Shown here in pieces: positions 29 through 15,479 of a stretch of DNA of 20,455 nucleotides; the first letter of the stretch is position 1, and each line of letters begins with the position of its first letter. The position numbers and the translations under genes are program-made. This DNA is from a virus: IMG/VR virus record IMGVR_UViG_3300045988_013649, positions 1 through 20,455 of that record; one strand, 5' to 3'. The notes beneath the pieces are model-generated. The model saw nothing but the letters and a program-made list of their open reading frames with translations, had not been told where the DNA came from and did no database searches.

Positions 29-1914
29 TCACTGACTTTGCTCCATATATTTGTTGCTACAGTTAAGATAACAGACCAAATATTCGCTACGATTGTAGCT
101 ATGATTTCTACAATCGGCATGATAAATCCTAGTATAGTTGCAATAGCCGTTCCAACATATGTGATTACTGTACTTATAAATGAAATAATCCCACTTACAA
201 CACTTCCTACAACTGTTAGAATAGATGTTATTACAGGAATCATTTCAGTTATCACTGAGATAATCTTTTGAATAATTGCTAGAATCGGTGGTCCTACTAC
301 TGTAAGAATCTTTTGTGCTTGATTCACAATGTTTTGAATAACTTCAATAATCTTGCTTAATATATCTTTTGCGATAGGTTCAAGTGCAACTTTCATCTGC
401 TCAATTGCTTTTTTTACTTCATCAAATGCAGGCTTTAAGACTTTGGAAACTTGGTTAACGATATTTGTGATTCCACTTGTATCAATGCTACCAAATACGC
501 TTGAAATAACTTCACCGACTTTGGCAAACCCTTTTTGAATATCTTGTATAGCTAATGTAATTAATACAATGATACCGGAAAGAATAGGGGTAATAAGTTC
601 GCCGATTGGAGTAAATGAATCAAGAAATGCACGTCCTAAACCACTTAAAGCGTTCTTTAAGCCACCGTTTGCGATAGCCTTAACCTTATCCATTGTTCCG
701 GCTACATTGTTATATTCATCACCTACAGATGATAAAGATGTAATAAACTTAAGGTTGAAATCTTCTCCCATTGTGCCGAATGCAATACTTGCTTTGTTTA
801 ATGCTTCTTGTTGATTTGTTGTTTCCTTAATATCTTGGATGATTGCGTCTTGCACATCTTTTTGTGTTGCGCCACCTTCTTTATATGCTTGGAAAACTTC
901 TTTTGTCTTATCATTGAAACTATCTAATGATTTTTCGATAGTTCCGTCTGACATTCTTGTAGTAATTTCATTTACTGCGTCATGCGCTTTATCAAGGTTA
1001 TAAGAACCACTTTTTACACCATTTGTAATAGTTTGTAAATATTCTTCTGCCGAATATCCTGCTTGCTTGAATTTACCTGCGTATTCTGCAATATTATCAC
1101 CTAATTCTCCGGAATAATCCAAACCATTCTGAGCACCTTTTGCTATAAGGTCAAAAGCTTTTTCGGAACTGATTCCAAATTGTTCCATTAATTGTTTCGC
1201 ACCTCTTAAGGTCTCATTCTCATCCATTCCATAAGCGTCTCTTAATGTAATCAAATCCTCGGTCACATTCTTTAGGTCAACATCACTTATGCCTTGCATT
1301 TGTTGCTTGACTCTGCCCATCATATCGGCAACATCTGAAATATCTTCACCGAAATTATTAGACCAAACATCACGAGCAATGTTTTTAAATTTATTCATTT
1401 CATTACTTGAAGCACCTGTTTGAGCTTGGAATTTAGCCATAGCGTCATCTAATTCCATGGCTTGATTAACACCTGTCTTAATTGCTAATGCCATGCCACC
1501 GATAGCTCCTGCCACGGCAGTAACACCAACAACTCCACCAACGCCTAATCCTGTTAATGTTTCTGTGATTGCAGTAGCTTCCGGACTAATATTCTGAATC
1601 TTTCCTAATAGTCCGTCAAATCCACCTTGAATTGATTCTAATGCACTATTACCTACTTGTTTAAATACATCAAATTTAGAACCTGTTTCTGTTGTTTCTG
1701 TCTGTGTATTCTTTTGTTCGCTATTTAGCTTTCTTAATTCATCCGTAATCTTTGGTGGTGCTTTTGAACCCTCAGAACCTAACTTATCTATCGCATTTGA
1801 AGTATCTTTAATAGCATTTGTAGCTTTATTTGATACATCACTAACCGATTTAATACCATTTTCAAGACCACTTGTATCTATCTTTGTATCAAACTTTAAT
1901 GTTCCATCTGCTAT
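29..1914 (-). CDS. tail tape measure protein, C-terminally truncated by the contig edge
   Basis: I translated the minus frame from 1914 to base 1 and found no stop in 638 codons. It is absent from the ORF track because no stop is reached. The product reads ADGTLKFDTKIDTSGLENG...MELDDAMAKFQAQTGASSNEMNKF...GYSAEEYLQTITNGVKSGSYNLDKAHDAVNEITTRM. It has a Gly/Ala/Val TM-like segment and a long hydrophobic helical tail, and it lies downstream of the chaperone pair. The first 133 codons contain no ATG/GTG/TTG. ATA at 1912-1914 follows an in-frame TGA (1915-1917), with SD AAGGAGGTG at 1924-1932. Confidence 0.85.
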
Positions 1915-1934
1915 TCAATTTGCCACCTCCTTTT

Positions 1935-2498
1935 CTAAACATCAAAATATGAATCAAATTCATCTTTCATTTCTTGCTCCTCTAGAGTTAACTCGATTGG
2001 GAAAGACCATGCTTCTTTTGCTCTTTGATATGCTTTATCTTGTGTATCATTCTTTGAAGGCTTTTCGTACCCTCTAACACTCTTTGCATATCCCCACAAT
2101 GTAGAATCACCAACGATATTATTCGCCAATGCTAAGAACTTGTGCCAATGCATATCACATTCCGTTAAATCAATGCCGTAAAGTTGCATAAATGCCGAAT
2201 AAATATATTCCCCATCATGTACATAGTCTAATGTCTTAACGCCTGTAGAATCACTTCTAGGCGTACTAGAAGGGTTATATAAGAATTGCTCTAACTCTTT
2301 TAAAATATGCCCGTCTATGATAGGTGGTTCATCTACGAATAAATAAGAGCAATCTATTTCATCAACAACATGATTGTTGAATCGTTCTAATTCTTCATAG
2401 AATCGAATCCACAATCGAAAATCTGTATTTAATAAAATAGGCTCGCCATCTAGCGATTGTATGCTATTTGGCAAGCCTTTTATGCGTAAATCAATCAT
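1935..2498 (-). CDS. Gp15-like tail assembly chaperone (second chaperone ORF)
   Basis: This is a 187-aa ORF with an ATG start, overlapping the upstream stop as ATGA. It lies immediately upstream of the tape measure gene. The motif LLNTDFRLWIRFYEEL resembles the Phage_Gp15 family as I recall it. Confidence 0.7.
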   Translation of the reverse strand: MIDLRIKGLPNSIQSLDGEPILLNTDFRLWIRFYEELERFNNHVVDEIDCSYLFVDEPPIIDGHILKELEQFLYNPSSTPRSDSTGVKTLDYVHDGEYIYSAFMQLYGIDLTECDMHWHKFLALANNIVGDSTLWGYAKSVRGYEKPSKNDTQDKAYQRAKEAWSFPIELTLEEQEMKDEFDSYFDV

Positions 2499-2857
2499 TT
2501 CTTCGCCGAAATGCTAGAAACAGTCTTGCTTGCGTCAAGAAATTGCTTCATTCCATTTGTTCCGAATGTTGTTTTTAATTTCTTTTCTAACTGTTCAACC
2601 GTTTTCTTTGAATATTCATCATCAATCAAATTGACAATATACAATACTTCCATCAAATCAACTTGTTCAAAATCTGCACTTCCTAACATGCTTTCAATTT
2701 GTTCATCTGTTAATACTGTTTTCAGATAGTCGAATTTAGCTCGATATGCTTCTTCATGTGTAGCGTGAAATGCGTTACAAGCGTCCTCTGCTTTTAATAC
2801 TTCAATAGTCTTAGTTGGGATTTCATACTGTTTCCCTTCATATGTGATTCTATTCAT
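2495..2857 (-). CDS. tail assembly chaperone (gpG position)
   Basis: This is a 120-aa acidic ORF with an ATG start and SD AAGAGGT 5 nt upstream. It sits between the major tail gene and the Gp15-like gene. The function is assigned by position. Confidence 0.6.
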   Translation of the reverse strand: MNRITYEGKQYEIPTKTIEVLKAEDACNAFHATHEEAYRAKFDYLKTVLTDEQIESMLGSADFEQVDLMEVLYIVNLIDDEYSKKTVEQLEKKLKTTFGTNGMKQFLDASKTVSSISAKK

Positions 2858-2875
2858 GATTTACCTCTTCTTTCT

Positions 2876-3382
2876 TTATACTTCTGATGTACCTTCTGTA
2901 AATGTTACTGTTCCATCTGCTACCTTTGCAGTACCGACACGAATATCACTTGCAAAGTTAATGTTGAAGTTGATTTTTGAATCGACACCACTTAATGTGT
3001 CAAAGATTAATTTAGTGTCAACTTCCCACGCTTTATATCCTTTTGTTTTGTCTCCGTCAAACATGAATACAAGTAAAGCTTTTGTGTTTACTTCTTCATT
3101 GTCCGGAACGGATTTCATCATTTTTTCATAGATGTATTCGAAATCATCTTCACCTTTAATCATTGTTAAATCTTGTGCAATCTGAGGTGAATAACTCTTC
3201 AATGATTCTGTAGGATTCTTATCTGCGATAAAGTCATATGTCTCCGTTTCACTGTTAAATGAAATATCCAAAGTTGTAGACTTCTTGATACGCTTGTACC
3301 CTGTTCCCATTTCCAAGAACAAACCAATCATATACTTTTTGACTGTTTGTCCTACGCTTACTTCAGTTCCTTGAGTTGTTAT
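2876..3382 (-). CDS. major tail protein (start placed at ATA 3380-3382)
   Basis: The track ORF is 2876..3331, but its ATG has no SD. The frame is open back to 3385, just after an in-frame TAA at 3386-3388. SD AAAGGAG (3391-3397) lies 8 nt before the ATA. The product is a beta-rich ~168-aa protein in the canonical tail-tube position. Confidence 0.75.
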   Translation of the reverse strand: MTTQGTEVSVGQTVKKYMIGLFLEMGTGYKRIKKSTTLDISFNSETETYDFIADKNPTESLKSYSPQIAQDLTMIKGEDDFEYIYEKMMKSVPDNEEVNTKALLVFMFDGDKTKGYKAWEVDTKLIFDTLSGVDSKINFNINFASDIRVGTAKVADGTVTFTEGTSEV

Positions 3383-3801
3383 TAATTAAGCTCCTTTCTG
3401 TATTTAATTTGAATAGTTAATGCATATACTGCTTGACTATCCTCATTTGTGTATAGATATAAACCACTTGAAACGGAAACATCATCACAATATTTGTTTC
3501 CGTCTAGTTGTGGTAATTCTCCATTTAAATTCTTTTCGTCAATCCATTCTCCTAATTCTTCTAAGAAGGAATTGTTGTCTTGTCTCTCGGATTCAATCTG
3601 TGTATTCCTACGTGCTAGAAACGTATAGTATTCAGTACGCATTTGAGAGCCGTCAATGTATGTATCTACAATTGCGTTAGGTTCTTTGTATAACGCATAA
3701 GAGATAGCTTGTTGCGCTAAAACATCCGTTTCAATACGTTCATCTATCTGTATATTTCCATATCCATATAGCCATTGAATCAACGCTTTTGATACTGTCA
3801 T
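3382..3801 (-). CDS. neck / tail-completion protein (position-based)
   Basis: This is a 139-aa ORF with an ATG in an ATGA overlap with the upstream gene. SD GGAGGT lies 5 nt upstream. It is the last of four small genes between the capsid and tail tube genes. Confidence 0.6.
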   Translation of the reverse strand: MTVSKALIQWLYGYGNIQIDERIETDVLAQQAISYALYKEPNAIVDTYIDGSQMRTEYYTFLARRNTQIESERQDNNSFLEELGEWIDEKNLNGELPQLDGNKYCDDVSVSSGLYLYTNEDSQAVYALTIQIKYRKELN

Positions 3802-4160
3802 TCACTACCTCCTATCATTTGTTGTGCTTTCTTTAAGATTGTTTCTGCTCCGCCATTTCGCATAGCTTTTTCAAACCAATGGTCTGTTTTACCACCAACG
3901 AAATGAGCGCCCTCTTTGTTGTAATACCAACGTCTTGCATATGGAGCACTTGGTCCACCTTGCTTTACTAATCCGCTACCGATTTGAGTATTTCTTGTAG
4001 CCGAGTTGATTAATGCTCCTGTATCTCTAGGCGTATAAGGGGACATAAGCCTAATGACTTCAGAATCAATCATTTGTTGAACTCGTCCACGTTCTTCAAG
4101 TCCTCTTGATTGCTTAATTTGGGGAATTGATTCAACATCAAGTTTGACTTTCATTCCTAT
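3798..4160 (-). CDS. HK97 gp10-like head-tail joining protein
   Basis: The sequence MKVKLDVESIPQIKQ...SPYTPRDTGALINS...YARRWYYN fits the gp10-family pattern (P..TG.L..S). The start is either ATG at 4152-4154, 16 nt from GGGAGG, or ATA at 4158-4160, 10 nt from the SD and overlapping the upstream TAG as ATAG. The track start at 4232 is nested in the upstream gene. Confidence 0.65.
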   Translation of the reverse strand: MGMKVKLDVESIPQIKQSRGLEERGRVQQMIDSEVIRLMSPYTPRDTGALINSATRNTQIGSGLVKQGGPSAPYARRWYYNKEGAHFVGGKTDHWFEKAMRNGGAETILKKAQQMIGGSE

Positions 4161-4576
4161 TGACCGACAACCTCCCAATGCTTCAACATATCGACATTCG
4201 TACAATCTGTAACACTTTGAATCGTTGTCCATTTGTATTTCTTTTTAGCTTCATTGATTGATTTAATGTTAGATAAATCTTCTTCTACTTCTCCAAAGAA
4301 TACAAAATCTGTCTTATCTGTATTCAATGTGAAATGCTTTTGTTTCTCATCATTTGAAAGCTTTGCATATACGTAAGGTTCAACATATCCCTCACGATAT
4401 AGAATGGTAATATTTGTGGATGTGGCTATGCTCAGAATATTACCATTTGCAGTTCTAACAGTTGATTGTCTCCACATACATTTATCAAGTATAGAAGCTT
4501 GAAACCTATCTTCTCTTGTCAATGTGTCGTAGTAGTGATTTACAAGTGTAATTGAATCTTCAAAGAATCCTATCAT
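4157..4576 (-). CDS. head-closure / head-tail adaptor protein (position-based)
   Basis: The ATG at 4574-4576 forms an ATGA overlap with the upstream stop at 4573-4575. The product is 139 aa and begins MIGFFEDSITLVNHYYD. The track start at 4621 would overlap the upstream gene by 49 nt. Confidence 0.6.
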   Translation of the reverse strand: MIGFFEDSITLVNHYYDTLTREDRFQASILDKCMWRQSTVRTANGNILSIATSTNITILYREGYVEPYVYAKLSNDEKQKHFTLNTDKTDFVFFGEVEEDLSNIKSINEAKKKYKWTTIQSVTDCTNVDMLKHWEVVGQ

Positions 4577-4920
4577 AATGCAATCCATCTTTCTTTCATT
4601 AAATCTGTATCGCCTAGCCAAAAGGCTATAATATCCTCAAGCGTGTTTCTTTTGTCTGAATGAGTAGTGTTTATAAAGCTTTTGGAATATCCACCATTTG
4701 AAATACTTGATACACCATCAATTGAATCTTGAAAGATTACATTGTTTAAAACATCACAGATACAATCTTTTAGAGTGCTTTCGTTCTGTTCGTTAATAGA
4801 ATCAACATTCACGTACTTCAATACCATTGCTTCGGCTTTGTAAGAATACTGATTGAATTGATTTTCATCGAATTTAGGAAAATGGGAATTGTAATATTCC
4901 CAATCTAAAATATTGTTCAT
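4573..4920 (-). CDS. head-tail connector protein (position-based)
   Basis: The ATG is at 4918-4920 with SD AGGGGG 7 nt upstream. The product is 115 aa and begins MNNILDWEYYNSHFPKF. It is the first gene after the major capsid gene. Confidence 0.6.
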   Translation of the reverse strand: MNNILDWEYYNSHFPKFDENQFNQYSYKAEAMVLKYVNVDSINEQNESTLKDCICDVLNNVIFQDSIDGVSSISNGGYSKSFINTTHSDKRNTLEDIIAFWLGDTDLMKERWIAL

Positions 4921-5016
4921 TTTACAACCCCCTTTAATGCTATTTTTCTTTTTGAGGTTTACCTTTTTTAGGCTTTTCAACTTTAGAAGGATAACCCCAT
5001 CCAATTTCTGTAGCCA

Positions 5017-5886
5017 TTACTTAGCACTAGCAGATAAGTAAATACCTGCTACCTTATTTGCGTATACATCAACGATTCCATACTTACGATATTTCAATAC
5101 ATCTGAATCTGATTCAATGTTATTGCTTGCAGGAATTACATTTGAAACGGTGTGTTTATCCCATTTCATTACGGCAGGTTTATGAACAATCAAGAAGTTG
5201 ATTACGTGTCCATCTTCTGCCTTTTCGTATCCGCCATCTAACTCTGTATCTTTTCCACTCAACAATTTGATTTTTGTATAGAAACGACTAGCAGGTACAG
5301 GAACAACTTTTGCGAATCCTTGTAAAGCTTCACGAGATTTGTATGTATCTAATGCCTTAACGCCATTTAATAATGTAGGTGTAGCATACAAGATACGTTG
5401 TTCGCTAGGAACTTCATCTTCATCCATTTTAGTAGTTGCCGTTAATAATGCGCTCAAGAACTCTTCTGAAGTTGTATAATCTTCGGCAACTGTTGTGATT
5501 CCTGTTGTTCCGGCAATTTTAGCAAATGTATAAGCGTCTGCTTCCGGTGCTACCTTTGTACGCATTAATTCTGCTCCTGCCATACCGAACGCAATATTCA
5601 TTGATTCGGCATTGTCTTGTGTATCGACTGAGATTTTAGTTCCTCTATCATAGTCGAATGTAGCAGTTTTCCATTCTAACTTAACTGAGTTACCTGTATA
5701 ACCACTATTTCTATCATAGTTTCCTAAACCTTTGACTGAAATTTGTGGATAGATGATTTCTTTTGCGTTCGCTCCTGCTCGTACCATTGTAGCGTCTGCA
5801 TTTAAATCACCTGTTACTGAAGCTAACTTATACACCTCATCTAGATTTGAGACATACGTTTTAGCTAGTGCAATTTGATTTGGTAT
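5017..5886 (-). CDS. major capsid protein (start placed at ATA 5884-5886)
   Basis: The track ORF starts at GTG 5835, which has no SD. The frame is open to 5889, after an in-frame TAA at 5890-5892. SD AAGGAGG (5896-5902) lies 9 nt before the ATA. The extended N-terminus is IPNQIALAKTYVSNLDEVYKLASVTGDL. The body (GLGNYDRNSGYTGNSVKLEWKTATFDYDRGTKISVDTQDNAES) looks like a Firmicutes-phage capsid family, and the gene follows the scaffold gene. Confidence 0.85.
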   Translation of the reverse strand: MPNQIALAKTYVSNLDEVYKLASVTGDLNADATMVRAGANAKEIIYPQISVKGLGNYDRNSGYTGNSVKLEWKTATFDYDRGTKISVDTQDNAESMNIAFGMAGAELMRTKVAPEADAYTFAKIAGTTGITTVAEDYTTSEEFLSALLTATTKMDEDEVPSEQRILYATPTLLNGVKALDTYKSREALQGFAKVVPVPASRFYTKIKLLSGKDTELDGGYEKAEDGHVINFLIVHKPAVMKWDKHTVSNVIPASNNIESDSDVLKYRKYGIVDVYANKVAGIYLSASAK

Positions 5887-5900
5887 TAATTAAATCCTCC

Positions 5901-6485
5901 TTATTTCTTTTCTGTAGTTAAACCCATTGCTTGTCGCAATAATAAATCTTCGGCGTTTGGGTTTTCTCCTTGCCCACTGCTTCCAACGATATTTCCTGTT
6001 GCAGTAGGTCCTTTCTGTTCTTCTTCAAATAAGATTGGCTTATTTTCTTTCAAAGTCTTGAAAGCCTTGTCAATATCATTTGTTTGGTCTTTGGAATTTA
6101 GTAAATCATCATAATTGAATTGTGATTTTGCTAAATCGAAATCTTTACATCCGTATTCTTTAGCTTTTGCACTTAATACAGAATCAAGATTCATTTTGCT
6201 AATCTGAGTTTCATATGTAGTCTTTTGAGTGTCAATATCATTCGTCAATGTATTGATTTTATTTCTCAATTCTTCTACATCAACCCCATCATAGCTTTCC
6301 TTGAATTTATCAAAATTTTTTTGAATATCCTTTGCGTTGTTCTCTGCTAAAGATAGCTTTTCTTTTTGCTTATCGAACTCCGCAATCGTCTTATAGTTAT
6401 CATTTACTAGCTTTGTAACTGATTCCTCTTGTTCTTTGGTTAATTCAATGTTTGATTCTTTTAAAATTTCAATAATGTTTTTCAT
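5901..6485 (-). CDS. scaffolding protein
   Basis: This is a 194-aa acidic, coiled-coil protein with an ATG start and SD GGAGGG. It lies directly upstream of the capsid gene and resembles GP20-type scaffold proteins. Confidence 0.8.
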   Translation of the reverse strand: MKNIIEILKESNIELTKEQEESVTKLVNDNYKTIAEFDKQKEKLSLAENNAKDIQKNFDKFKESYDGVDVEELRNKINTLTNDIDTQKTTYETQISKMNLDSVLSAKAKEYGCKDFDLAKSQFNYDDLLNSKDQTNDIDKAFKTLKENKPILFEEEQKGPTATGNIVGSSGQGENPNAEDLLLRQAMGLTTEKK

Positions 6486-6562
6486 TTGCCCTCCTAAAGT
6501 ATTTTATAAACCGAATCTTCTCCGGTATGGTTTTGGCTAACTATATTTTAGCTTGAATAATA

Positions 6563-6577
6563 GCTCACAATGTGAGC
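6563..6577 (-). terminator. stem-loop GCTCAC-AUU-GUGAGC, 4 nt after the MuF-like stop (weak terminator or processing hairpin)
   Basis: The stem is a perfect 6-bp, G/C-containing stem. On the minus strand it is followed by TATTATT. The same stem sequence recurs at 15498-15512. Confidence 0.4.
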
Positions 6578-6580
6578 GTT

Positions 6581-7762
6581 TTAGCCAATTCTAAGCCTAT
6601 CGTTGTGAATTCTATCTCCCATTTCAGTACTGAAAGCTTTATACGTTGCATTTGCGTGTTTTAGCTTAATTTTTGCTTCTGTACTGCTTAATCCTTGATT
6701 GTCCAATAAGATTACTTCCCTTTTTAATGCTCTGATGTTTCTTTCAAGCTCTCTTTGATACTGTCTAGCTTTATATCCTTCATATTTTTTTCCTTGGAAT
6801 GTGAAAGGCTTTGTATCAATATTCTTTAACTGGTCTTTTGTGTAAGCGTAAGGCATATCAACATCCCAAACCGGTTGTGCAAAGTGTCTACATCCGTAAT
6901 CTTTTTCTTCTCCATGCGTTAACTCATACAAGCTAGGATATAGTTTCCCTTGCGTATCGTATCGTTTTCCTTGCCACTTCTTATGACTTGGACGTGCATT
7001 TGCGTGAGCGTCAAATTCATATACAGTAACTCCCAAATCTTTAGCACATTTATTGTTAATTTCTTGTGATGATTCCTTTTCTGCATACTGCATTTGTTGC
7101 CTTACCCATACATCCAAATTTCTTTTAACTCCTGTATCATATTCCACAATCTTTACGCCACTATTTGCTAACTTTGAAATAGCTTTTCTGCAAGAATCAT
7201 CAATCGTACATTTACCATCTACCACATTTTTAACTTCTTCTTGAACTACCTTTGTAAAGAATACAGGTAGTTTATCTTTACCGATTGCATATGTATTTGC
7301 GTTTGATTTAATGTACTTCTTCCAACGCTTTGCGGTATCTTTCTGTGGACTTCTATATAAATCCATTTTTAGTTTCTTTTTGACAGGTTTCCCACTTGCT
7401 TCTTTGATTAAATCAAGTGTACCTTGCTTATTTTCTTCAAAGTCCTTTTTCGATTCATTGATTACATCTTTTTTTAGACTTTTTGATTCTTTTTTTGTGA
7501 ATTTACGCAAATCTACTAGTGATTTTGCTAATATCTCATTAAATTTTGCGTTTTCTTCGGTGCTTTTTTCTAAAGCTTCACGAATTTTATTAGAAATGAA
7601 TATCATCATCCCTAATTCAAATACACTAGCACGCTTTACGCTTTTTCTTTCTCTTTCTTCAAGCTTTCTTCTTTTCTCAATCTGCTTTTGTAGACGTTCT
7701 TGTTTCCTTTGTTCTTGCCTTCTTTTACGTTCTTGTTCCCTTTGTTCTTCTTCGCTTAACAT
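6581..7762 (-). CDS. minor head protein, Mu F / SPP1 gp7-like (Phage_min_cap2-like C-terminus)
   Basis: This is a 393-aa ORF with an ATG start and SD AGGGGGT. It carries the motif DAHANARPSHKKWQGKRY, typical of the Mu F head-morphogenesis domain. The N-terminus is highly charged (EEEQREQERKRRQEQRK). Confidence 0.8.
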   Translation of the reverse strand: MLSEEEQREQERKRRQEQRKQERLQKQIEKRRKLEERERKSVKRASVFELGMMIFISNKIREALEKSTEENAKFNEILAKSLVDLRKFTKKESKSLKKDVINESKKDFEENKQGTLDLIKEASGKPVKKKLKMDLYRSPQKDTAKRWKKYIKSNANTYAIGKDKLPVFFTKVVQEEVKNVVDGKCTIDDSCRKAISKLANSGVKIVEYDTGVKRNLDVWVRQQMQYAEKESSQEINNKCAKDLGVTVYEFDAHANARPSHKKWQGKRYDTQGKLYPSLYELTHGEEKDYGCRHFAQPVWDVDMPYAYTKDQLKNIDTKPFTFQGKKYEGYKARQYQRELERNIRALKREVILLDNQGLSSTEAKIKLKHANATYKAFSTEMGDRIHNDRLRIG

Positions 7763-7781
7763 TTATATACCCCCTATAGAA

Positions 7782-7801
7782 AAAGGGCTTAAATGCCCTT
7801 T
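7782..7801 (-). terminator. rho-independent terminator after the fibre-like module
   Basis: On the minus strand the hairpin AAAGGGC-ATTTAA-GCCCTTT is followed by TTCTAT, so the U run is continuous with the stem. It lies between the XkdX-like stop (7811) and the MuF-like SD. Confidence 0.6.
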
Positions 7802-7810
7802 AAAACGCTT

Positions 7811-7966: not shown

Positions 7967-8135
7967 TAACTTCCTCCGTTTCTTCCTCAGGTAATTCAAT
8001 ACCTGCCATGCATGCTACATACTGAGTGATGAATTTCTGATTTTCTAATTCGTCTTTTGTAGTTTGAACTTGTGAAGCTTGATACTCCTCTTGAGCTTGT
8101 CTTTCAATTGATGTCTCTAGTTGTTTGATTTTCAT
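7944..8135 (-). CDS. small acidic hypothetical protein (XkdW position)
   Basis: This is a 63-aa ORF with an ATG start and SD AAAGGAG 7 nt upstream. Confidence 0.6.
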   Translation of the reverse strand: MKIKQLETSIERQAQEEYQASQVQTTKDELENQKFITQYVACMAGIELPEEETEEVNDVQNLE

Positions 8136-8158
8136 TTAAAAGCTCCTTTCTATGCAAT

Positions 8159-9343
8159 CTATGCAATGCAAACAAGCGGACTGCAAGCAAACGCACTACT
8201 CGCATGGCTATTCGTGATAGTACCATTAGAGTACACAAGCCACGTATCATAAGCATTGTAGCGAACGGATGAACGCAAACGAACGCTCTGAGCCGATGTT
8301 TTATTTGCGACTGAGTATCCAATCATATTTGGATACTCAGTCAACCATTCACAAGGGATTGTACGTCCACTTCTTCTTTTCCAATAGGCGTGTACATCAC
8401 CTTCTCCACTCGTCTGTGGTTTGATGAACATCTGAGATAACGAAGGTAACGTAACGTAATCATATGTAATATCCTCTGCACCTTCATCATTTACAGTGTT
8501 GGCATAAGTAACTACCTTTACTTTTTTTAAGCAATTTAGCATTTTCTCGGGCATACCACAAAGGAATCCGTCTTTACCTGCTAATTGGTCAGGGCAAATA
8601 TCCCATTGGTCTTGTGGAGTCCACCATTGTCCTTTTGGTTTGCTTGAATTTAAGTACTGTCTTAAAACAGATGTTTTCCATCTGTTCCATCCATATGCCA
8701 TTTCTTGCATAGAATTTAAATTCCCACTTCTACTATCGTATTGTATTGTTCCTAGATTTGTTCCACCACTGCCAACAGTAACATTAACTGTTTCATTTAG
8801 CGTGATTCCATCTTTACCGTATGAATAAACCTTCCAACTTGATGGTGTGGTATCTGGTGCTCCGTAACATCCAGCTAATCTACCACCTTTTTCTACTGGT
8901 TTAGTCAATGTGAATTGGTAATTGATTCCTGGTTTAACATTGCTTCCCCATTCTTTCACAAAATCAAAATGATATGTTCCTACTGCTAATCCATTAGGGC
9001 ATGCTATAAAAGCCCTTTGGTGTGAGAATTGAATACCAAAAGGCAAAGTATAGTGCGATTGTAGCCACATTCCCGGAACTACTTCTCCGTCCTCTAAAGT
9101 TACATCTTCAAAGTGGTTTACTTGCCACGGAATATCATATTCCTTTAGCTCTGCGGTATCTGTCCATTTCTCGATTAATTGCGTACCAATTGCAAATGCT
9201 TTTTCACCCGCACCATCTGCAACGATTGTTTGAACACTATTCCAATCCATATTGGAATGTGCGATATTTGTTTGAGCAATTACAGATAAAGCTTTTGCAA
9301 TTTCTTGTCCTGTATATTCTGTTAGAATTCTTTTCTTACTCAT
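8159..9343 (-). CDS. putative receptor-binding / fibre distal protein
   Basis: This is a 394-aa ORF with an ATG start and SD GGAGGT. The C-terminal pattern SVRLRSSVRYNAYDTWLVYSNGTITNSHASSAFACSPLVCI resembles DUF6273-type ends (W.LRS...V...G....RP). The function is inferred from its neighbours. Confidence 0.5.
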   Translation of the reverse strand: MSKKRILTEYTGQEIAKALSVIAQTNIAHSNMDWNSVQTIVADGAGEKAFAIGTQLIEKWTDTAELKEYDIPWQVNHFEDVTLEDGEVVPGMWLQSHYTLPFGIQFSHQRAFIACPNGLAVGTYHFDFVKEWGSNVKPGINYQFTLTKPVEKGGRLAGCYGAPDTTPSSWKVYSYGKDGITLNETVNVTVGSGGTNLGTIQYDSRSGNLNSMQEMAYGWNRWKTSVLRQYLNSSKPKGQWWTPQDQWDICPDQLAGKDGFLCGMPEKMLNCLKKVKVVTYANTVNDEGAEDITYDYVTLPSLSQMFIKPQTSGEGDVHAYWKRRSGRTIPCEWLTEYPNMIGYSVANKTSAQSVRLRSSVRYNAYDTWLVYSNGTITNSHASSAFACSPLVCIA

Positions 9344-9545
9344 CGTCTACCTCCTGAACAATATATCCTTCTTCGTCTACAGATAAACCTAGTGCATCAA
9401 ATCTCTGCTTTAATGCACTGATTCCTAAAGCAGTATCTAATTGTTGTACTGTACATTTCTTTGTGCTTTCTTCATCTTCAATAATTAGTAAATTTTCTTT
9501 TTTTATGCCGTTTGAGCTAGGCAAATCTTCTATCTTTACTCCTAT
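9336..9545 (-). CDS. small fibre-anchor-like protein with N-terminal KIxDLP...TKK motif (start placed at ATA 9543-9545)
   Basis: The frame opens after TAG at 9549-9551. SD GGAGGG (9552-9557) lies 7 nt before the ATA. The product begins GVKIEDLPSSNGIKKENLLIIEDEESTKKCTVQQL, which resembles the common tail-fibre N-terminal motif. The track TTG start at 9524 cuts through that motif and is 14 nt from any SD. Confidence 0.6.
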   Translation of the reverse strand: MGVKIEDLPSSNGIKKENLLIIEDEESTKKCTVQQLDTALGISALKQRFDALGLSVDEEGYIVQEVDDE

Positions 9546-9548
9546 TCG

Positions 9549-10937
9549 CTACCCTCCATAATTGATATTTGCTTTAATATCATTTCCATTATTGAAATAT
9601 ATCTTTTTAACTTTTTTTATAACTCCGTTATCGTTATACCAAACCTTAGCTTGAATTAATTTCCCTGTATCAGAAATCATTTCTGCTAATAGAACATTTC
9701 CTTTTTTATCTGTTATTTCAAATCCATCTTTAGTTAAGATAGCTTCTTGATAATCAATAACATGATATGCAATCTTTGCTTGGTCTGCAGGTGTCGTAAA
9801 TCCCACGTTAGCGTAATCTGAAGGAGTGCCGAAATCATCTACAATTCTAATGTAGAATGTGTATATAGTTTCCGGTACTAAATCATCCACAACTAACTTT
9901 GTTTGCGTCTGTAAATCCTTCCATATTATTCCATCATATGAATACTGATAATAATATGAGTTTGCACCTTCTTTAATTTCAAAACCACTCCAAGTAAATG
10001 TAGCTCCAAACGGATTCAAATCTGTATAACTTACACTTCCTTTGCTAGGTTTATCCGGTTTGGTAGTTTTAAACACTACCTTTACTGAATCAGAAGGTGT
10101 GCTAAAGTTATCAACAATTCTTACATAATATGTATATTCAGTATTAGGGCTTAACCTTGATACTTCAAATCCTGTCCCTTTTGACCTATCTATCCAATTA
10201 TTATCATCAGTAGATGATTGATAATAATAATCTGTTGCACCTTCTTGAATGCTAAATCCACTCCATGAAATATAAGCAGATTTATAAGTAATATTAGAAG
10301 CTTCTACCTTTCCTGCTTTTGGCTTGTTTGGTTTCTGAGTCTTTATAAATTTGCTAACAGGATTTTCTAAAAGTACACTTGTATCTCCTCGGTATCTTAC
10401 ATAGCAATTTACCTCGTATTCTTTGTTTGGGGTTAATCCCTCAAATTTTCCTTCAGTGCCGATTTTAGAAGTCTTATCTAAAGTTGCTTTAATTGTGTAG
10501 AAATTATAAGGATTTGATTCCAAAGTAGCTTTATAACTTACAGAATTATAAGTACTGCTTAATTCAATATCTTTGATTTTCGGTATAGATATAGTAGCTG
10601 ATTCAGTTTGCAAACCACTTGCAGAAATATTTCCGAAGCTAGTACTAAAATATATATTTCTAGAATCTTCTCTATTATTCGTAGAAAATGAATACTCTAG
10701 TGTTCCACTAGCTAATGCCCACGTTCCTGCTCCACCTGTGTTTATGTTTACAGTATGGCTATTGTATCCAAAATAAATAACTGCTCCATTGTATTGCGTT
10801 GAGTTATTATAAAATGCGTGTTGTAGATAAATTGTATATGAAACTTTATGTTTAATGTTCGGATATGTTCCTTCTATGTAATTGCTACAATCTACACGAA
10901 AGCTAATTCCATGTATACCTGTATAATAAGTAGCCAT
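9549..10937 (-). CDS. structural protein with tandem FN3-like domains
   Basis: This is a 462-aa ORF with an ATG start and SD AGAGGTG. Two ~90-aa repeats (aa 202-292 and 293-382) each carry W..F...EGA..YYYQ....W..........L.P.T.YT.Y.RIVD.F.TPSD. A weaker third copy lies at aa ~120-200. The N-terminal domain is beta-rich and DUF859-like. Confidence 0.75.
   Translation of the reverse strand: MATYYTGIHGISFRVDCSNYIEGTYPNIKHKVSYTIYLQHAFYNNSTQYNGAVIYFGYNSHTVNINTGGAGTWALASGTLEYSFSTNNREDSRNIYFSTSFGNISASGLQTESATISIPKIKDIELSSTYNSVSYKATLESNPYNFYTIKATLDKTSKIGTEGKFEGLTPNKEYEVNCYVRYRGDTSVLLENPVSKFIKTQKPNKPKAGKVEASNITYKSAYISWSGFSIQEGATDYYYQSSTDDNNWIDRSKGTGFEVSRLSPNTEYTYYVRIVDNFSTPSDSVKVVFKTTKPDKPSKGSVSYTDLNPFGATFTWSGFEIKEGANSYYYQYSYDGIIWKDLQTQTKLVVDDLVPETIYTFYIRIVDDFGTPSDYANVGFTTPADQAKIAYHVIDYQEAILTKDGFEITDKKGNVLLAEMISDTGKLIQAKVWYNDNGVIKKVKKIYFNNGNDIKANINYGG
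9792..10334 (-). repeat. in-frame tandem duplication encoding two FN3-like modules
   Basis: Copy 1 (10062..10334) reads KPNKPKAGKVEASNITYKSAYISWSGFSIQEGATDYYYQ...YYVRIVDNFSTPSDSVKVVFKTT. Copy 2 (9792..10061) reads KPDKPSKGSVSYTDLNPFGATFTWSGFEIKEGANSYYYQ...FYIRIVDDFGTPSDYANVGFTT. Confidence 0.85.
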
Positions 10938-10940
10938 AAA

Positions 10941-11702
10941 CTACACCTCTAACTGAAAATAGAAATATCCTGCAGGACAAGTTTCTAAAGTTGGTACATC
11001 TGTACCTATCTTGTATTTAATTTCCTGTCTTGCTTTTAATTCCATCTGTTCTTTTTCTAAGTCTTGAATCATTAAAAGAAGCTTTCCACCTTCTCCTTCT
11101 CCAAGAACATCTTTAACAATTGCGAACCAATCATCCCATGCTTTTTGATTCTCTTGTATAGCTTTTGCGTATTCTTTTTTTGCTTCTGCTATTGCTTCTG
11201 CAAATTGGTTAAAGAATTGTGTTGTATCTATCTGCTTAATTGCGTTTGTAACAACTCCACATCTACTTGAATCTAATCTAGTATCAGTAATATCTGAGCC
11301 TTTAATTTCTGTTGAGTTACCTTGTACCTTTACAGTCGCTAAAACTAAATCATAGATAGAATCTGTTCTTGTGATTGATTCACTAGCTACTACACTAATA
11401 TTTCTATAAGAATCGTTGTCGTTTAATCTCAATACAATATTGTATGTCTTTGTGGAACTAGAATTTGTTAATGTGATGGTTTCGTCGTCTTTTTGCCAAT
11501 AGAACGCTCCATTAATGTTTGCTCGTCCTGCTTTAATTGTTAATGTTAAGCCTTGAGCTTTCTCAACTCTTAAATGGTCTGTACTAGAATCATCTACGAA
11601 CACGCCGTTTGTAAAGTAGCTTGAGAACAATCTTCTGAAAGCGTCATATAATACTAATCTATCACCATTTCTAGAGATGAATGGAAAATATGTTGTTGCT
11701 AT
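10941..11702 (-). CDS. tail-fibre-like protein (start placed at ATA 11700-11702)
   Basis: The track starts at TTG 11630. The frame is open to 11708, after an in-frame TGA at 11709-11711. The extended N-terminus is ATTYFPFISRNGDRLVLYDAFRRLFSSYFTNGVF, which matches the YFPF.S..GDR.Y.A..F...F..NGVF motif of prophage fibre proteins as I recall it. The ATA overlaps the portal TAG as ATAG. SD GGAGAGGAGG is at 11713-11722. Confidence 0.7.
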   Translation of the reverse strand: MATTYFPFISRNGDRLVLYDAFRRLFSSYFTNGVFVDDSSTDHLRVEKAQGLTLTIKAGRANINGAFYWQKDDETITLTNSSSTKTYNIVLRLNDNDSYRNISVVASESITRTDSIYDLVLATVKVQGNSTEIKGSDITDTRLDSSRCGVVTNAIKQIDTTQFFNQFAEAIAEAKKEYAKAIQENQKAWDDWFAIVKDVLGEGEGGKLLLMIQDLEKEQMELKARQEIKYKIGTDVPTLETCPAGYFYFQLEV

Positions 11703-13102
11703 TCTTCTTCATCCTCCTCTCCATCATCTTGAATTTCTTCATTTAATAACTCTGTTGCTTCTTCTTCAGTAAAGCCATATTGTTTCATGAAATACATAAT
11801 CTTTAATCTTGGAATATCAAATGTTAATGCGTCATTTCTTAACGCTTGTGCAGTGCTTTGCTTATCTTCGATATAAGTATCATCATAATCAATAGCAATG
11901 TCTAATGAATTAATATTAAGCTTTCTTCCTTGCGTTAATTCATAGAAGTATGCTATTGCTTGAATAATACCTTGAATATATGCAGTAGATTCTTTGCGTT
12001 GTGAGTTTACTTCCTTCATAGCGTCTTGATTCTCACCGATATATTCTGTTGCCGTTACGATTCTTCCACTCTCAAACGTGTATTTTTTTGTACCGAATCC
12101 AAACATCATAGATAAGATACTTAATGCAGTTTCTAACGACTGCACAACCTCTTGTGTTCTAACTGTTGGATTATATTCTTGCCATAAAGCTTTTTCTTCC
12201 GGCAACTTGTCTCTACCCAATTGCACGAAGATATTCTTTAATTGTGGATTCTGTTTCACTTTTCCGTTCTTGTCTTTCTGCATTAATGCTTCATTTACAA
12301 GAACGATTTTATCTGATTTCAATAAATCTCGATTCCACATTGTCATTGTCAAGTCAATTGTTTTCAAAGGAGCAATTGCACTCCAAATCTTAGGCAAGCC
12401 GTACCCTTGCATTTGTAAGTTGTTTACCTTTGCATTTCTCATAATTGCAAAAGGTTTAACCACATCTAATTGAACAATCTGAGCACGCTCTTTTATTTCC
12501 TCGCCTGTATCTTTGAAGTAATGTGTTTCTGCAATATATCTTTCGTCTTGTCCTTTTAAGAACATGACCATCACATATACTTTTTTTAACTTCTCATAAT
12601 TTACTCCAACGAAAGCTACCTCAACGATTTCATCATTGATAACAGTTAATGGGAGGATATTCATTGAATCACAATAGTTGATTCTGATTTCTCCTCCACT
12701 AAATGAACCATCTTCATAAATCTCGGCATTTGATACCGTCACATAAGCTCCTACTGTTCCGTTTGCAGACATTTGCTCAACTTGTTTCCTATACATTACA
12801 TCAAACCTATTCTTTGTTAGAATGTCTGAAATAATGTCATTTGTTGTACTGTCTTCAGTTGCGTTTATATCTAGGATTTCAATTAGGTTTGCGTCATCTT
12901 CGCATAAACGCTTTGCAAAGTCTGTCTTGTCTAGCGTGTATTCCTCATTGTTCAAGGTGTATGCCGTATGAAATTCTGTTTCGGTATTTGTGTACCACTT
13001 GTTGCACAATTCAATAATCTCAATTGCGTTTGTATCTACATAATACCCTCTATCGTTTAGGTAATTTTGAAACCACGGTCTACGTGTGTTAGATGTTTCT
13101 AT
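11699..13102 (-). CDS. portal protein, SPP1 gp6-like (start placed at ATA 13100-13102)
   Basis: The track starts at TTG 13009. The frame is open to 13105, directly after the terL TAA at 13106-13108. A perfect SD AAGGAGG (13109-13115) lies 6 nt before the ATA. The extended N-terminus is ETSNTRRPWFQNYLNDRGYYVDTNAIEIIELCNKWYTNTETEFH, which fits portal N-termini (..gy.v......I..W..WY.....FH). The protein is ~467 aa, has an acidic C-terminus, and follows terL. Confidence 0.88.
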   Translation of the reverse strand: METSNTRRPWFQNYLNDRGYYVDTNAIEIIELCNKWYTNTETEFHTAYTLNNEEYTLDKTDFAKRLCEDDANLIEILDINATEDSTTNDIISDILTKNRFDVMYRKQVEQMSANGTVGAYVTVSNAEIYEDGSFSGGEIRINYCDSMNILPLTVINDEIVEVAFVGVNYEKLKKVYVMVMFLKGQDERYIAETHYFKDTGEEIKERAQIVQLDVVKPFAIMRNAKVNNLQMQGYGLPKIWSAIAPLKTIDLTMTMWNRDLLKSDKIVLVNEALMQKDKNGKVKQNPQLKNIFVQLGRDKLPEEKALWQEYNPTVRTQEVVQSLETALSILSMMFGFGTKKYTFESGRIVTATEYIGENQDAMKEVNSQRKESTAYIQGIIQAIAYFYELTQGRKLNINSLDIAIDYDDTYIEDKQSTAQALRNDALTFDIPRLKIMYFMKQYGFTEEEATELLNEEIQDDGEEDEEE

Positions 13103-13105
13103 TTC

Positions 13106-14440
13106 TTACCTCCTTAAATCTATATATCCACTATGGGTTATAAATGTATAGCAGAACGAATCCCAATCATCATTGATATTGTTTACGTTCTCATCTATTG
13201 GAATGTCTTCCTTTTTATCCCATACCAATTCGCTTAATGCGTTTATTAAGTTCTTACAATGTTCTTCTATCTTTAGCCTACCTGTAACAAGTAAGCTATC
13301 AACCGTTATAGGACGGTCTGCAAGCTCATTCTTCTTAACTGGTGCAATTATACTTCCGTCTAATCCTTCGGCGTAAAAATAAGCTCTAAGCGTGTTTATA
13401 AGTGTATTTGAAGCACTATCCGGAAATATCCACTCTACATATCCGTAACATTCAACACAACGCTTATAGAACCTTACAAACGCTTTGCAAAACTTTGTTG
13501 CGTCTATTGCATTTGACTTTGCCATGTCTCCTTCATCAAGTGCCCACATATAATCCCAATCATTTGTAAACCCTGTTAAGTGCCATGAATACTTTGAGCC
13601 ATTGTCTCCAAAGTCAACACCTATGATTAAATGACTAAACCTTTTTCCTTTTTCATTCATCTTTTCTTTTAGACTCTGATATTTAAATAAATAAGGTTTG
13701 CAGTCATTTGCAAAATAAGGGAATACAAGTCCTTCGGCTTCTTCCCTTTGTCCTTTTATGTCTCTTTTGTAATAAACGCTATTCTTATCGTATGATTTCA
13801 AGACTGTTCTTATCTGCTCATCACTTAAAGAATAATTGTCAACTAAGGTGGTATGCCCATAGTTGTAACCATATGTAGAATCTTTATTCTGTTGCTCCTC
13901 ATGATATTTCAAGAAATCTGTGTAATACCAATGATTCTTGCCTTTTGGGTTTAAATCATGAAATATCTTTCTATCGCTTGACGCTATCGTTCTATCCATC
14001 ACTTCTTGTAGAAACTCAATGCAACAAAGGTTTGCTTCTGTTACATATGCCATTCCATAAGAATAACCATGTATTGCATTCTCTGAGCCTTTCTTAGCAC
14101 CACCGGCAAAGAATACAACCTTTTCTCCAACCTTTGTGTTGATGTAATAACAGTCTTTACCTTCATACTTTCCCACTTTGAATCTATTCGCAAAGTAGTT
14201 CTGCAATCCATATCCATTACAATCTCCAATATTAACACGTGCAGATGATGTATCTGTTCCTGCTATTAAATGGAACTTATCCGGATGTGTTTCTAAAGCA
14301 ATACAGAAAGCGTATGTATTTAATACATTCTTTCCGCCTCTTTTCCCACCTTCTAATACATTAAGCCATGAATCGAATGTTCTTTTAAGATAAGTTAATT
14401 GTTTTTGATTGAAAGGCGCAGGCTTATTCAAAATCTTCAA
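13106..14440 (-). CDS. terL: terminase large subunit (PBSX / Terminase_3-like)
   Basis: This is a 444-aa ORF starting at TTG 14438-14440, which is the first possible start after an in-frame TAG. It has a Walker-A-like LEGGKRGGKN and an N-terminal PFNQKQ motif. It overlaps the terS end. Confidence 0.9.
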   Translation of the reverse strand: MKILNKPAPFNQKQLTYLKRTFDSWLNVLEGGKRGGKNVLNTYAFCIALETHPDKFHLIAGTDTSSARVNIGDCNGYGLQNYFANRFKVGKYEGKDCYYINTKVGEKVVFFAGGAKKGSENAIHGYSYGMAYVTEANLCCIEFLQEVMDRTIASSDRKIFHDLNPKGKNHWYYTDFLKYHEEQQNKDSTYGYNYGHTTLVDNYSLSDEQIRTVLKSYDKNSVYYKRDIKGQREEAEGLVFPYFANDCKPYLFKYQSLKEKMNEKGKRFSHLIIGVDFGDNGSKYSWHLTGFTNDWDYMWALDEGDMAKSNAIDATKFCKAFVRFYKRCVECYGYVEWIFPDSASNTLINTLRAYFYAEGLDGSIIAPVKKNELADRPITVDSLLVTGRLKIEEHCKNLINALSELVWDKKEDIPIDENVNNINDDWDSFCYTFITHSGYIDLRR

Positions 14441-14813
14441 TTCTTCTTTCTTTTGCTACATCTGTAATCATAGCTTTATTAATTGCATTTACTTCTGAAG
14501 CGTCAAAATGTGTTTCTACCTTATCTGATTGACCTAGGAATTGTTTGCCTAAGAAAATAGCCATTGCAGGACTCTTTGAAGCTAGTTTAAATTGCGCTCT
14601 TCGTAACGAAATTCTTCCTTGTGCGCCGAACCTTTTTAAACATTCGGAGAAATCAGTTCCATATGTACGTTTGCACCATTTTGATAGTGTCTTATCTGTC
14701 GTGTTAAAAAAATAGCATACTTCTGCTTGCGTGCATTGAATAGCTAACAATTTTTCAAATTCTTCTTTGTCGAAATCCTTGTTAGGTCTTCCAACTTTTC
14801 CATTCGCTATTAT
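14424..14813 (-). CDS. terS: terminase small subunit with HTH (start placed at ATA 14811-14813)
   Basis: The body LAIQCTQAEVCYFFNTTDKTLSKWCKRTYG...ISLRRAQFKLASKSPAMAIFLGKQFLGQSD is a typical terS. The conserved N-terminal GRPNKDFDKEEFEKL lies upstream of the track TTG at 14750. The frame is open to 14825, after TAG at 14826-14828. The only start-like codons there are ATA ATA (14808-14813), 5 and 8 nt after SD AAAGGGG (14819-14825). Confidence 0.85.
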   Translation of the reverse strand: MIANGKVGRPNKDFDKEEFEKLLAIQCTQAEVCYFFNTTDKTLSKWCKRTYGTDFSECLKRFGAQGRISLRRAQFKLASKSPAMAIFLGKQFLGQSDKVETHFDASEVNAINKAMITDVAKERRIEDFE

Positions 14814-14953
14814 TACATCCCCTTTCTATATTTATCACTCAATATTTTTGGTGTGCAATGTTTCCAATCAACTTTGTGGTGCGTTCTTTTCGTAATGTGC
14901 GATGTCATTAATTTTTAATTTAATAATTTCCATTTTATTCCCCTTTTTTAAGC

Positions 14954-15473: not shown

Positions 15474-15479
15474 AAAACA

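Follow-up and report, generated by a model that had tools for sequence, protein, structure and literature searches.

ATA start codons and a matching phage-encoded initiator-type tRNA(UAU) in a temperate siphovirus of the human gut

Which tRNA begins translation at AUA when a phage places this codon at the head of its capsid, tail and portal genes? The question is raised by IMG/VR record IMGVR_UViG_3300045988_013649, whose positions 1 to 20,455 (the whole stretch analysed, hereafter the window) are most of the genome of a temperate siphovirus of human-gut Bacillota. AUA is the start codon of at least eight genes of the window, namely terS, the portal gene, a head protein gene, a gene for a 69-aa protein (DLP69), the genes of the major capsid protein (MCP), major tail protein (MTP) and tape measure protein (TMP), and a gene for a 194-aa protein. 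The same strand carries a tRNA with anticodon UAU on an initiator-type body. On the strength of the sequences compared here, it is very likely that this tRNA makes AUA a cognate start codon for the phage genes and that AUA inside genes stays isoleucine. The initial annotation had described the use of ATA by seven of these genes as unexpected; the sites stand, but no cause was offered, and the tRNA lies outside the coordinates it considered.

The ATA sites were read on the minus strand, which carries every long reading frame of the window (the plus strand reads TAT at these sites). The coordinates, Shine-Dalgarno (SD) motifs and spacings of the seven sites initially annotated were all recovered as given there (Table 1), as were the A at position -1 in all seven and the in-frame TGA immediately before the ATA of the TMP gene. 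In a stop-to-stop analysis, the first ATG, GTG or TTG of each frame was reached after 133 open codons in TMP, 32 in the portal gene, 26 in the head protein gene (initially labelled fibre-like; the protein matches PHROG "head protein" families), 25 in terS, 18 in MCP, 18 in MTP and 8 in DLP69. The SD is absent at these downstream canonical starts, as had been claimed. The accompanying figure of 50-95 nt for the gaps that such starts would leave is too low for TMP, where the gap is about 400 nt. The terS gene could start at either of its two adjacent ATA codons. DLP69 is the weakest of the seven sites: its first canonical start is a TTG, and profile searches gave no protein family match. ATG starts are normal in the neighbouring genes.

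All seven genes are thus retained, but the count was short. An eighth ATA opens the 194-aa gene at 16616-16618, where an ATA start is likely and well supported: the first ATG lies 15 codons downstream and has no SD, and the PHROG match spans residues 3-193. The description of the early genes as using an ordinary ATG is accordingly nearly true, with at least this one gene upstream of the tRNA as an exception. A ninth ATA start is possible in the small gene ending at 15823. Its ATA (16015-16017) is kept in 38/38 relatives, across three different upstream contexts, and it is ambiguous because an ATG comes two codons later. Two other candidates were rejected: an ATA at 4236-4238, which in some relatives is separated from the ATG by a stop, and a reading of TGA as a sense codon that would lengthen TMP upstream, where there is only a GTG abutting the SD (other genes open after TAA or TAG).

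A start-blind tally was then made of codons that open a reading frame of at least 70 codons, follow an in-frame stop by no more than 12 codons, have an SD matching at 5/6 or better at a distance of 4-11 nt, and are neither preceded, nor followed within 8 codons, by a canonical start. Of the sites so defined, ATA makes up 6 of 15 in the window, 189 of 508 in 35 close relatives and 8 of 224 in 45 distant relatives.

Homologue alignment, which had been proposed as a check, was performed on a comparison set of 80 viral loci with MCP relatives (designated by L and a number), further loci being pooled for codon counts. It supports the initial claim that translation of these genes starts at the ATA behind the SD rather than at a TTG, GTG or ATG further down, as the N-termini of ATG-start relatives and the PHROG profiles fit the ATA codon. 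The first codon of MCP is ATA in 35/35 close relatives (at least 92% identical); among the remaining 45 loci, 44 (54-66% identical) have ATG at exactly that codon and one (L069) aligns only from residue 3. When all loci were pooled, ATA was found in 42/42 homologues at 80% identity or more and in one further homologue (L153, 54%), and ATG in 61 homologues of 50-80% identity. The MCP of the window opens IPNQIALAKTY, against MPNxIxLAKNY in the 61 ATG-start homologues. For the capsid, head, tail and portal proteins, the first few positions of the PHROG profiles fit the first few residues after the ATA; for example, residues 3-288 of MCP match positions 3-294 of the 297 of phrog_422, and residues 3-229 of the head protein match positions 8-257 of phrog_1220 ("head protein").

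The codon is equally stable in other genes: ATA is found in 33/33 relatives for TMP, 69/69 for the portal gene, 66/66 for the head protein gene, 17/17 for the terS allele of the window and 13/13 for the 194-aa gene. The N-terminus of TMP reads IADGTLKFDTK, compared with MADGSLIFDTK, and distant homologues open M-A-(A)-D-G-S-L. Among near-identical relatives, ATA and ATG are exchanged at the same codon. For MTP, 32/35 relatives have ATA, this codon is ATG in L016, and two relatives have a 3-nt shift yet keep ATA; for DLP69, seven relatives have ATA and one ATG; and among the other terS alleles, ATA-GCA-AGA-AAA (L016) swaps with ATG-GCA-AGA-AAA (L022). ATA also appears to start further genes of relatives, namely those for Dit and holin, which lie beyond the window and downstream of the tRNA, and one of the replication module.

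Public gene calls for one relative (L143, ENA contig k119_25212) are shortened, with 272 aa for MCP, 436 aa for the portal protein, 719 aa for TMP and 257 aa for Dit, and its terS region is called as a 46-aa fragment. Because gene calls cut ATA-start genes in this way, the database proteins of the L143 lineage are without their true N-termini. The packaging module is a mosaic: phages that are nearly identical elsewhere differ in terS, of which there are at least three alleles (43-68% identical); terL (13106-14440 of the window) starts at TTG (14440), overlapping the end of terS, and at ATG in other terL alleles of the clade.

The tRNA was matched by the Rfam tRNA model at 15473-15401 on the minus strand (48.8 bits, gathering score 29). 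It lies about 20 nt after the hairpin that ends a sigma-like gene, and is followed by a spacer of about 150 nt, a second hairpin and the late operon. A purine 11:pyrimidine 24 pair in the D stem defines initiators, and a paired 1:72 is needed for EF-Tu. In the window tRNA, 1:72 is without a pair (A1xA72, marked as non-canonical by cmscan), and G2:C71, C3:G70, discriminator A73 with encoded CCA, D stem GAGC/GCUC (A11:U24), variable loop AGGUC and G30:C40 are all present, as in bacterial tRNAfMet (E. coli metZWV/metY). A 1:72 mismatch with the 2:71 and 3:70 pairs is the formyltransferase determinant, and three G:C pairs in the anticodon stem are a P-site feature (PMC5389676). The tRNA differs from tRNAfMet in its anticodon (UAU, not CAU), in A1xA72 instead of C1xA72, in U37 instead of A37, in altered D and T loops and in being encoded by a phage.

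Thirteen sequences were aligned: the window tRNA, 11 other UAU copies and E. coli tRNAfMet, whose sequence was checked against 5,426 genomes. The alignment obeys the cloverleaf in 95% of cells, and in 11 pairs both partners have changed, far above shuffled and slid controls; 1:72 is unpaired in 11 of the 13 tRNAs, E. coli tRNAfMet among them, and G2:C71, C3:G70, A11:U24 and G30:C40 are present in all 13. Between tRNA variants, three compensatory pair changes affect the anticodon stem, and the loop CUUAUUA is invariant in 9/9 sequence variants of the clade. Compared with an elongator tRNA-Ile(UAU), the window tRNA has the same anticodon, but it lacks the 1:72 pair, the elongator D stem, a purine at position 37 and tRNA-Ile relatives: the annotated features under its best BLAST matches (50,697 phage records) are all tRNA-Met and none tRNA-Ile. 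A genuine elongator-type tRNA(UAU) was seen in L059, with G1:C72 and a GCTC...GAGC D stem; the 11:24 orientation is reversed in the elongators of L139 and L059.

One copy of the tRNA (L140, 7928-8002) has normal D and T loops. Relative to this copy, the main clade shows a D loop changed from AGUGGUG to AGUAGUA, a T loop changed from UUCAAAU to UGCAAAU, and a bulged base gained in the T stem. The joint change of GG to AG in the D loop and UUC to UGC in the T loop may be compensatory, as a coordinated shift of elbow contacts. No consensus match to a sigma-70 promoter was found for the tRNA. An extended -10-like sequence, TGTAATAAT (15474-15497, recognised by eye), lies 8-16 nt upstream of the 5' end of the tRNA, right after the terminator hairpin, and also precedes the tRNA copy of L013; it is possibly a dedicated tRNA promoter without a -35 element.

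The main reason for favouring a mechanism over coincidence is that the start codon follows the anticodon of the phage tRNA in three states. The first state is that of the ATG-using relatives, many of which carry an initiator-like tRNA(CAU) in the late operon, the others having no tRNA. Because these relatives carry tRNA(CAU), the UAU tRNA looks derived from a phage initiator tRNA common in the group. The tRNA(CAU) carriers (L042 at 4110-4183, L049, L055, L068 at 9259-9332, L070-L074, L077, L082 at 4392-4466 and L083) are distant relatives with ATG-start capsids and include prophages of [Clostridium] asparagiforme and Enterocloster lavalensis; their tRNAs have 1x72 mismatches (UxU, GxG, GxA), a GGG:CCC anticodon stem and the unusual anticodon loops CCCAUAA, UUCAUGC, UUCAUAC and UUCAUUC.

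In the second state, UAU goes with ATA. A 24-nt core of the tRNA was found on 35 IMG/VR contigs, which include 28 of the 35 ATA-clade MCP contigs; most of the remaining ATA-clade contigs end before the expected tRNA region. IMG/VR and metagenomes were also searched with a pattern that joins a TAT anticodon to an initiator-type D stem, which gave further matches in IMG/VR and 58 in metagenomes. Among them, the lineage of L142 and L153 (54% identical to the window in MCP, 61% in the portal protein and 48% in terL) carries a C1xA72 tRNA(UAU) directly upstream of terS. The terS, portal and capsid genes of L153 open at ATA, with first canonical starts 93, 8 and 23 codons in; its portal gene reads TGA|ATA-GAA-GAT-TGC, compared with M-E-G/S-C in ATG-using homologues, and its capsid gene opens ATA-GCA-AAC-AGT (IANSIALSKNYV). 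No more contigs with an L142-type tRNA were found in IMG/VR, and only one (L153) in metagenomes.

The third state was found by changing the anticodon of the pattern. In IMG/VR, AAU or GAU on an initiator-like tRNA gave 0 matches, and CAA, CAC or CAG gave 18. Eight of these 18 are one tRNA(CAG) of human-gut phage contigs, located between terL-like and portal genes, with C1xA72, G2:C71, C3:G70 and A11:U24, and with U31.G39 and U37 as in the UAU tRNAs. Contigs with this tRNA include L205, L209, L210, L214, L218 and L219 (in L210 the tRNA is at 5863-5938, with genes at 4087, 6184 and 8269). In these phages an SD-preceded CTG opens several genes, including those for the terL-like protein, portal, MCP and TMP, and the first canonical start is reached after 109 codons in the terL-like gene, 36 in the portal gene, 23 in the capsid gene (LPYNNQIELAKS) and 53 in the tape measure gene. 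The start-site tally gave 189 ATA and 2 CTG sites in phages with the UAU tRNA, 0 ATA and 15 CTG sites in phages with the CAG tRNA, and 8 ATA and 3 CTG among the 224 sites of other relatives. At the level of sequence, then, start codon and anticodon covary as CAU-ATG, UAU-ATA and CAG-CTG.

The mechanism that we propose would run as follows. In lytic growth the prophage would express the tRNA, which, once charged and carrying the formyl group added by the host Fmt, would reach the P site in the manner of tRNAfMet. Its UAU anticodon would there form three Watson-Crick pairs with an AUA placed behind an ordinary SD, so that AUA would act as a cognate start for these genes in the infected or induced cell, and AUA inside genes would be read as isoleucine by the host elongator tRNA. 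The expression, charging and formylation of the tRNA, and its use in initiation rather than elongation, are inferred. MetRS depends on C34 and IleRS reads the anticodon; isoleucine is therefore the most likely amino acid on tRNA(UAU) and the most likely first residue of the ATA-start proteins.

Several observations weigh against this reading. ARAGORN called no tRNA in the window. The three G:C pairs of the anticodon stem (29:41, 30:40, 31:39) are incomplete, the window tRNA having A29:U41, G30:C40 and U31.G39, that is one of three; a variant on 7 contigs has two (G:C, G:C, U.G), one pair from the E. coli stem, and natural au/GC/gu initiators exist as variants of the three-G:C rule (PMC5389676). 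U37, the bulged base of the T stem, the T loop UGCAAAU and a D loop without GG are other departures from a canonical initiator. Two loci (L017 and L026) have an ATA-start MCP and no tRNA was found in the DNA examined. In L017 (IMGVR_UViG_3300029219_000010), homologues of portal, terL and terS are absent, together with the tRNA, from the 10 kb upstream of the ATA-start capsid gene, and this locus is either a mosaic relative or a chimeric assembly. Conversely, L136, a phage of 29% G+C, carries at 915-990 an initiator-like tRNA(UAU) with a paired U1:A72, and its terminase, portal and capsid genes start with ATG; several other metagenomic UAU copies have no ATA starts in their short flanks. The UAU and CAG tRNAs share GGU-CUnnnUA-GCC in the anticodon arm, and the lineages of the covariation are not fully independent. 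Lastly, ATA starts also occur upstream of the tRNA, in the 194-aa gene and in the replication-module gene of relatives, so a clean early/late switch is not supported.

Among the other explanations, the one that survives best supposes that the host tRNAfMet (CAU) reads ATA by a third-position mismatch, helped by a strong SD, the phage tRNA(UAU) being an elongator for internal AUA. This keeps some weight, because native AUA starts with extended SDs in S. aureus reach about 10-30% of AUG expression with the normal initiator (PMC13009471), which counts equally against a dedicated initiator; in an optimised context, AUA mRNA was as active as AUG mRNA in vitro (PMC5499595). Internal demand exists (ATA is 94 of the 421 internal isoleucine codons of the window), ARAGORN calls the L013 copy "tRNA-Ile (tat)", and in L136 a similar tRNA stands beside ATG starts. 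An elongator for isoleucine would, however, not be expected to lack the 1:72 pair, to carry the Fmt determinants G2:C71 and C3:G70 with A11:U24 and U37, or to have tRNA-Met relatives, and where an elongator-type tRNA(UAU) was seen, in L059 alone, the MCP starts at ATG. The CAG initiator-like tRNA with CTG starts in a separate phage group and the CAU versions in ATG-using relatives are left unexplained, and it would be strange for more than 40 relatives to keep a start of 10-30% strength for capsid, tail and portal without reverting to ATG. We therefore regard this explanation as unlikely.

Very improbable, by comparison, is that the downstream canonical codons are the real starts and the upstream frame an untranslated leader. 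Public gene calls do use downstream starts (L143), but the upstream residues are homologous to the N-termini of ATG-start relatives and to the PHROG profiles, no SD stands at the downstream codons, ATG replaces ATA at the same codon in relatives, and TMP would lose 133 conserved codons. There is equally little room for a reassignment of AUA to methionine in the host-phage system, for which the precedent is mitochondria, where AUA is both methionine and a start (PMC11775629). This reading was rejected on the alignments of internal ATA: as for ATT and ATC, the homologues have I (39%), V and L opposite this codon, and M stands opposite ATG. That ATA is a sequencing, assembly or base-modification artefact of ATG is hardly conceivable: the adapter at both ends indicates an uncleaned contig, but dozens of contigs, the products of different metagenomes and assemblers, show the same ATA codons, next to genes with a normal ATG, and the effect is specific to codon and position.

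The preferred reading, initiation by a phage tRNA(UAU), can be set beside several known systems. In E. coli, anticodon-mutant initiator tRNAs start at complementary non-AUG codons and set the N-terminal residue (bioRxiv 10.1101/2021.05.25.445580). The phage tRNA resembles the engineered i-tRNA(CUA) (amber starts) and i-tRNA(AAC) (GUU starts) in combining an initiator body, a changed anticodon and a complementary start (10.1101/2021.05.25.445580, 10.64898/2025.12.21.695813). Unlike these laboratory constructs, it is natural, conserved in a phage lineage and accompanied by matched start changes in many essential genes. Native attenuating starts that tRNAfMet reads (infC AUU/AUA; S. aureus ccpN and citZ AUA) likewise place AUA behind a strong SD in a Bacillota species (PMC13009471), but they concern single regulatory genes of low expression without a dedicated tRNA, whereas here at least eight genes, abundant virion proteins included, are associated with a cognate tRNA. 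Mitochondrial tRNA-Met (f5C34) also allows AUA initiation through a tRNA able to pair (PMC11775629); there, one tRNA serves initiation and elongation and AUA is methionine throughout, unlike the internal AUA of the phage, which is isoleucine, and its separate initiator-type tRNA.

A nearer parallel is provided by stop codons. Gut phages reportedly recode stop codons via phage-encoded suppressor tRNAs (Borges et al. 2022). As in that case, a phage tRNA would give a codon a role absent in the uninfected host, mainly in lytic and structural genes, whose translation may depend on it; unlike suppression, which turns a stop into sense during elongation, the change would concern the start codon, involve an initiator-type tRNA and leave the internal code as it is. 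Recoding by phage suppressor tRNAs is also treated in PMC10879173. Phage tRNAs often carry loop changes near nuclease sites, by which they evade host anticodon nucleases (PMC10264068), and the phage initiator-like tRNAs resemble them in their unusual anticodon loops; according to the same source, phages generally avoid tRNA-fMet if the anticodon is the target, and a joint change of anticodon and start codon is not described there.

Coordinates of the features of the window are collected in Table 1. The early genes are followed by a late operon in the order DUF6275 gene, terS, terL, portal, head protein, two large accessory proteins, MuF-like minor head protein, scaffold, MCP, connectors, MTP, two chaperones and TMP (first 637 codons). 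TMP matches PHROG tape-measure families and Pfam PhageMin_Tail; MTP was assigned by position and matches phrog_3099 (function unknown). The sigma-like 108-aa gene is probably a late-gene regulator. The stops of the 28 complete window genes are TAA in 16, TAG in 6 and TGA in 6, and the G+C of the window is about 33%.

Table 1. Features of the window, with ATA starts, SD motifs and SD spacings where applicable
Feature	Position	Strand	Remarks
Tape measure protein gene (TMP)	29..1914	-	ATA 1912-1914 right after in-frame TGA; GGAGG, 11 nt; 3' part missing
Putative major tail protein gene (MTP)	2876..3382	-	ATA 3380-3382; AAAGGAG, 8 nt
Major capsid protein gene (MCP)	5017..5886	-	ATA 5884-5886; AAGGAGG, 9 nt
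69-aa protein gene (DLP69)	9336..9545	-	ATA 9543-9545; GGAGG, 7 nt
Head protein or head-fibre-like gene	10941..11702	-	ATA 11700-11702; GAGGAGG, 10 nt
Portal gene	11699..13102	-	ATA 13100-13102; AAGGAGG, 6 nt; phrog_533 match
terS	14424..14813	-	ATA ATA 14808-14813; AAAGGGG, 5 and 8 nt; PHROG terS match
194-aa gene	16034..16618	-	ATA 16616-16618; GGAGG, 6 nt; phrog_28936 (function unknown)
Candidate small gene	15823..16017	-	ATA 16015-16017; GGAGG, 8 nt; ATG two codons on
tRNA, initiator-type body	15398..15473	-	Anticodon UAU; 73 nt and encoded CCA; Rfam tRNA model
Anticodon UAU	15439..15441	-	Loop CUUAUUA, U at position 37; fully complementary to AUA
DUF6275 gene	14954-15199	-	First gene of late operon
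Terminator-like hairpin	15223..15243	-	7-pair stem then T-run; between tRNA and DUF6275 gene
Terminator-like hairpin	15497-15513		Overlaps end of sigma-like gene
Sigma-like 108-aa gene	15500..15826	-	phrog_1740 "RNA polymerase sigma factor", E = 4.6e-4, weak match; adjoins tRNA upstream
Early genes (dUTPase-like protein, SSB, others)	20.4-kb end of window	-	First in gene order

The phage is considered temperate because its relatives carry an integrase and a cI-like repressor. No close phage was found in GenBank by megablast, all of whose matches to unrelated phages are due to the adapter at the contig ends. In MCP, the isolated phages that come closest are Eggerthella phage PMBT5 (47%) and Ruminococcus phage RG-TP1 (42%), and a scan of genome contigs for MCP gave only distant prophages, at 67% identity or less, in Lachnospiraceae and other Clostridia and in one "Tenericutes" metagenome-assembled genome. 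No host flank was found on the contigs (20-50 kb) matched by exact-protein look-up. An endolysin domain was not found; a holin is recognisable in relatives, beyond the window. Among the early proteins of the window, no IF3-like protein, Fmt or aminoacyl-tRNA synthetase was seen. The Nextera transposase adapter is present at both contig ends (1-28 and 20410-20455), as AGATGTGTATAAGAGACAG at 10-28 and as its reverse complement with index-primer sequence at 20410-20455; it yields a false "MLRSLVGSEMCIRDS" start of an open reading frame and a false "LLYTSPSP" tail on TMP.

The pattern searches also gave tRNAs outside the three states. Initiator-type bodies with CAC, CAA or CAG were seen at 37-69% G+C in L206, L207, L211, L212, L213, L215, L216/L217 and L220; GTG and TTG were counted as canonical in the start scan, whose reach therefore does not extend to an enrichment of starts matched to CAC or CAA. 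In L203 (about 1867-1950) and L208 (about 1221-1300), an initiator-like tRNA with CAC seems to be interrupted after the variable loop and is followed by a second anticodon-arm-like segment, GCGTGG-CTCATAA-CCACG, which could reflect an intron, a fusion or a tandem fragment. In L196 (9388-9543) and L178 (1478-1633), a tRNA(UAU) has an almost canonical initiator body, with C1xA72 and all three G:C pairs; its neighbour at 8 nt is a tRNA to which ARAGORN assigns the 4-base anticodon "tgaa". L196, taken from a 96-kb contig (34% G+C), has very few long open reading frames when read in code 11, and stop-codon recoding in this phage is suggested.

To our knowledge, all natural bacterial initiator tRNAs described so far carry CAU, and non-AUG starts are read by that tRNA through mismatches. 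A full-text literature search, in which subscription journals were thinly covered, brought up AUA initiation in mitochondria, engineered orthogonal initiators, attenuating AUA starts of native genes and suppressor-tRNA recoding by phages. Neither a natural initiator tRNA with an anticodon other than CAU nor ATA- or CTG-start regulons of phages were described in it; ATA starts with a matched phage initiator-type tRNA look not to have been described before. Two candidate benefits fit the data. VapC toxins cut tRNAfMet, and the change could provide escape from host nucleases of this kind, an idea that the unusual loops of the phage initiator-like tRNAs (CCCAUAA, UUCAUGC, UUCAUUC, CUUAUUA, CUCAGUA) fit. 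It could also act as a translational lock keeping the virion genes silent without the phage tRNA, for instance in lysogens.

For annotation, standard gene callers shorten or miss ATA-start genes (MCP, portal, TMP, Dit, terS) and tRNA annotators label the tRNA as Ile; because of such cuts, virome protein catalogues hold systematic N-terminal errors for these lineages. The questions raised concern the first amino acid, its processing by Fmt, PDF and MAP, the handling by IF3 of a cognate non-AUG pair with a weakened three-G:C stem, and a role in counter-defence against nucleases that cleave initiator tRNA. Beyond the clade of the window, it seems likely that some temperate gut phages run a natural orthogonal initiation, in which a re-targeted initiator tRNA (UAU, CAG, possibly CAC or CAA) reserves a start codon of its own (AUA, CUG) for the virion genes and further lytic genes. 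If true, the ATA- and CTG-start genes would be translatable independently of the host tRNAfMet, and their N-terminal residue would be other than methionine, formyl-isoleucine with the UAU tRNA and formyl-leucine with the CAG tRNA. A natural initiator tRNA with another anticodon would then be the initiation counterpart of stop-codon recoding, in a form so far engineered by synthetic biologists.

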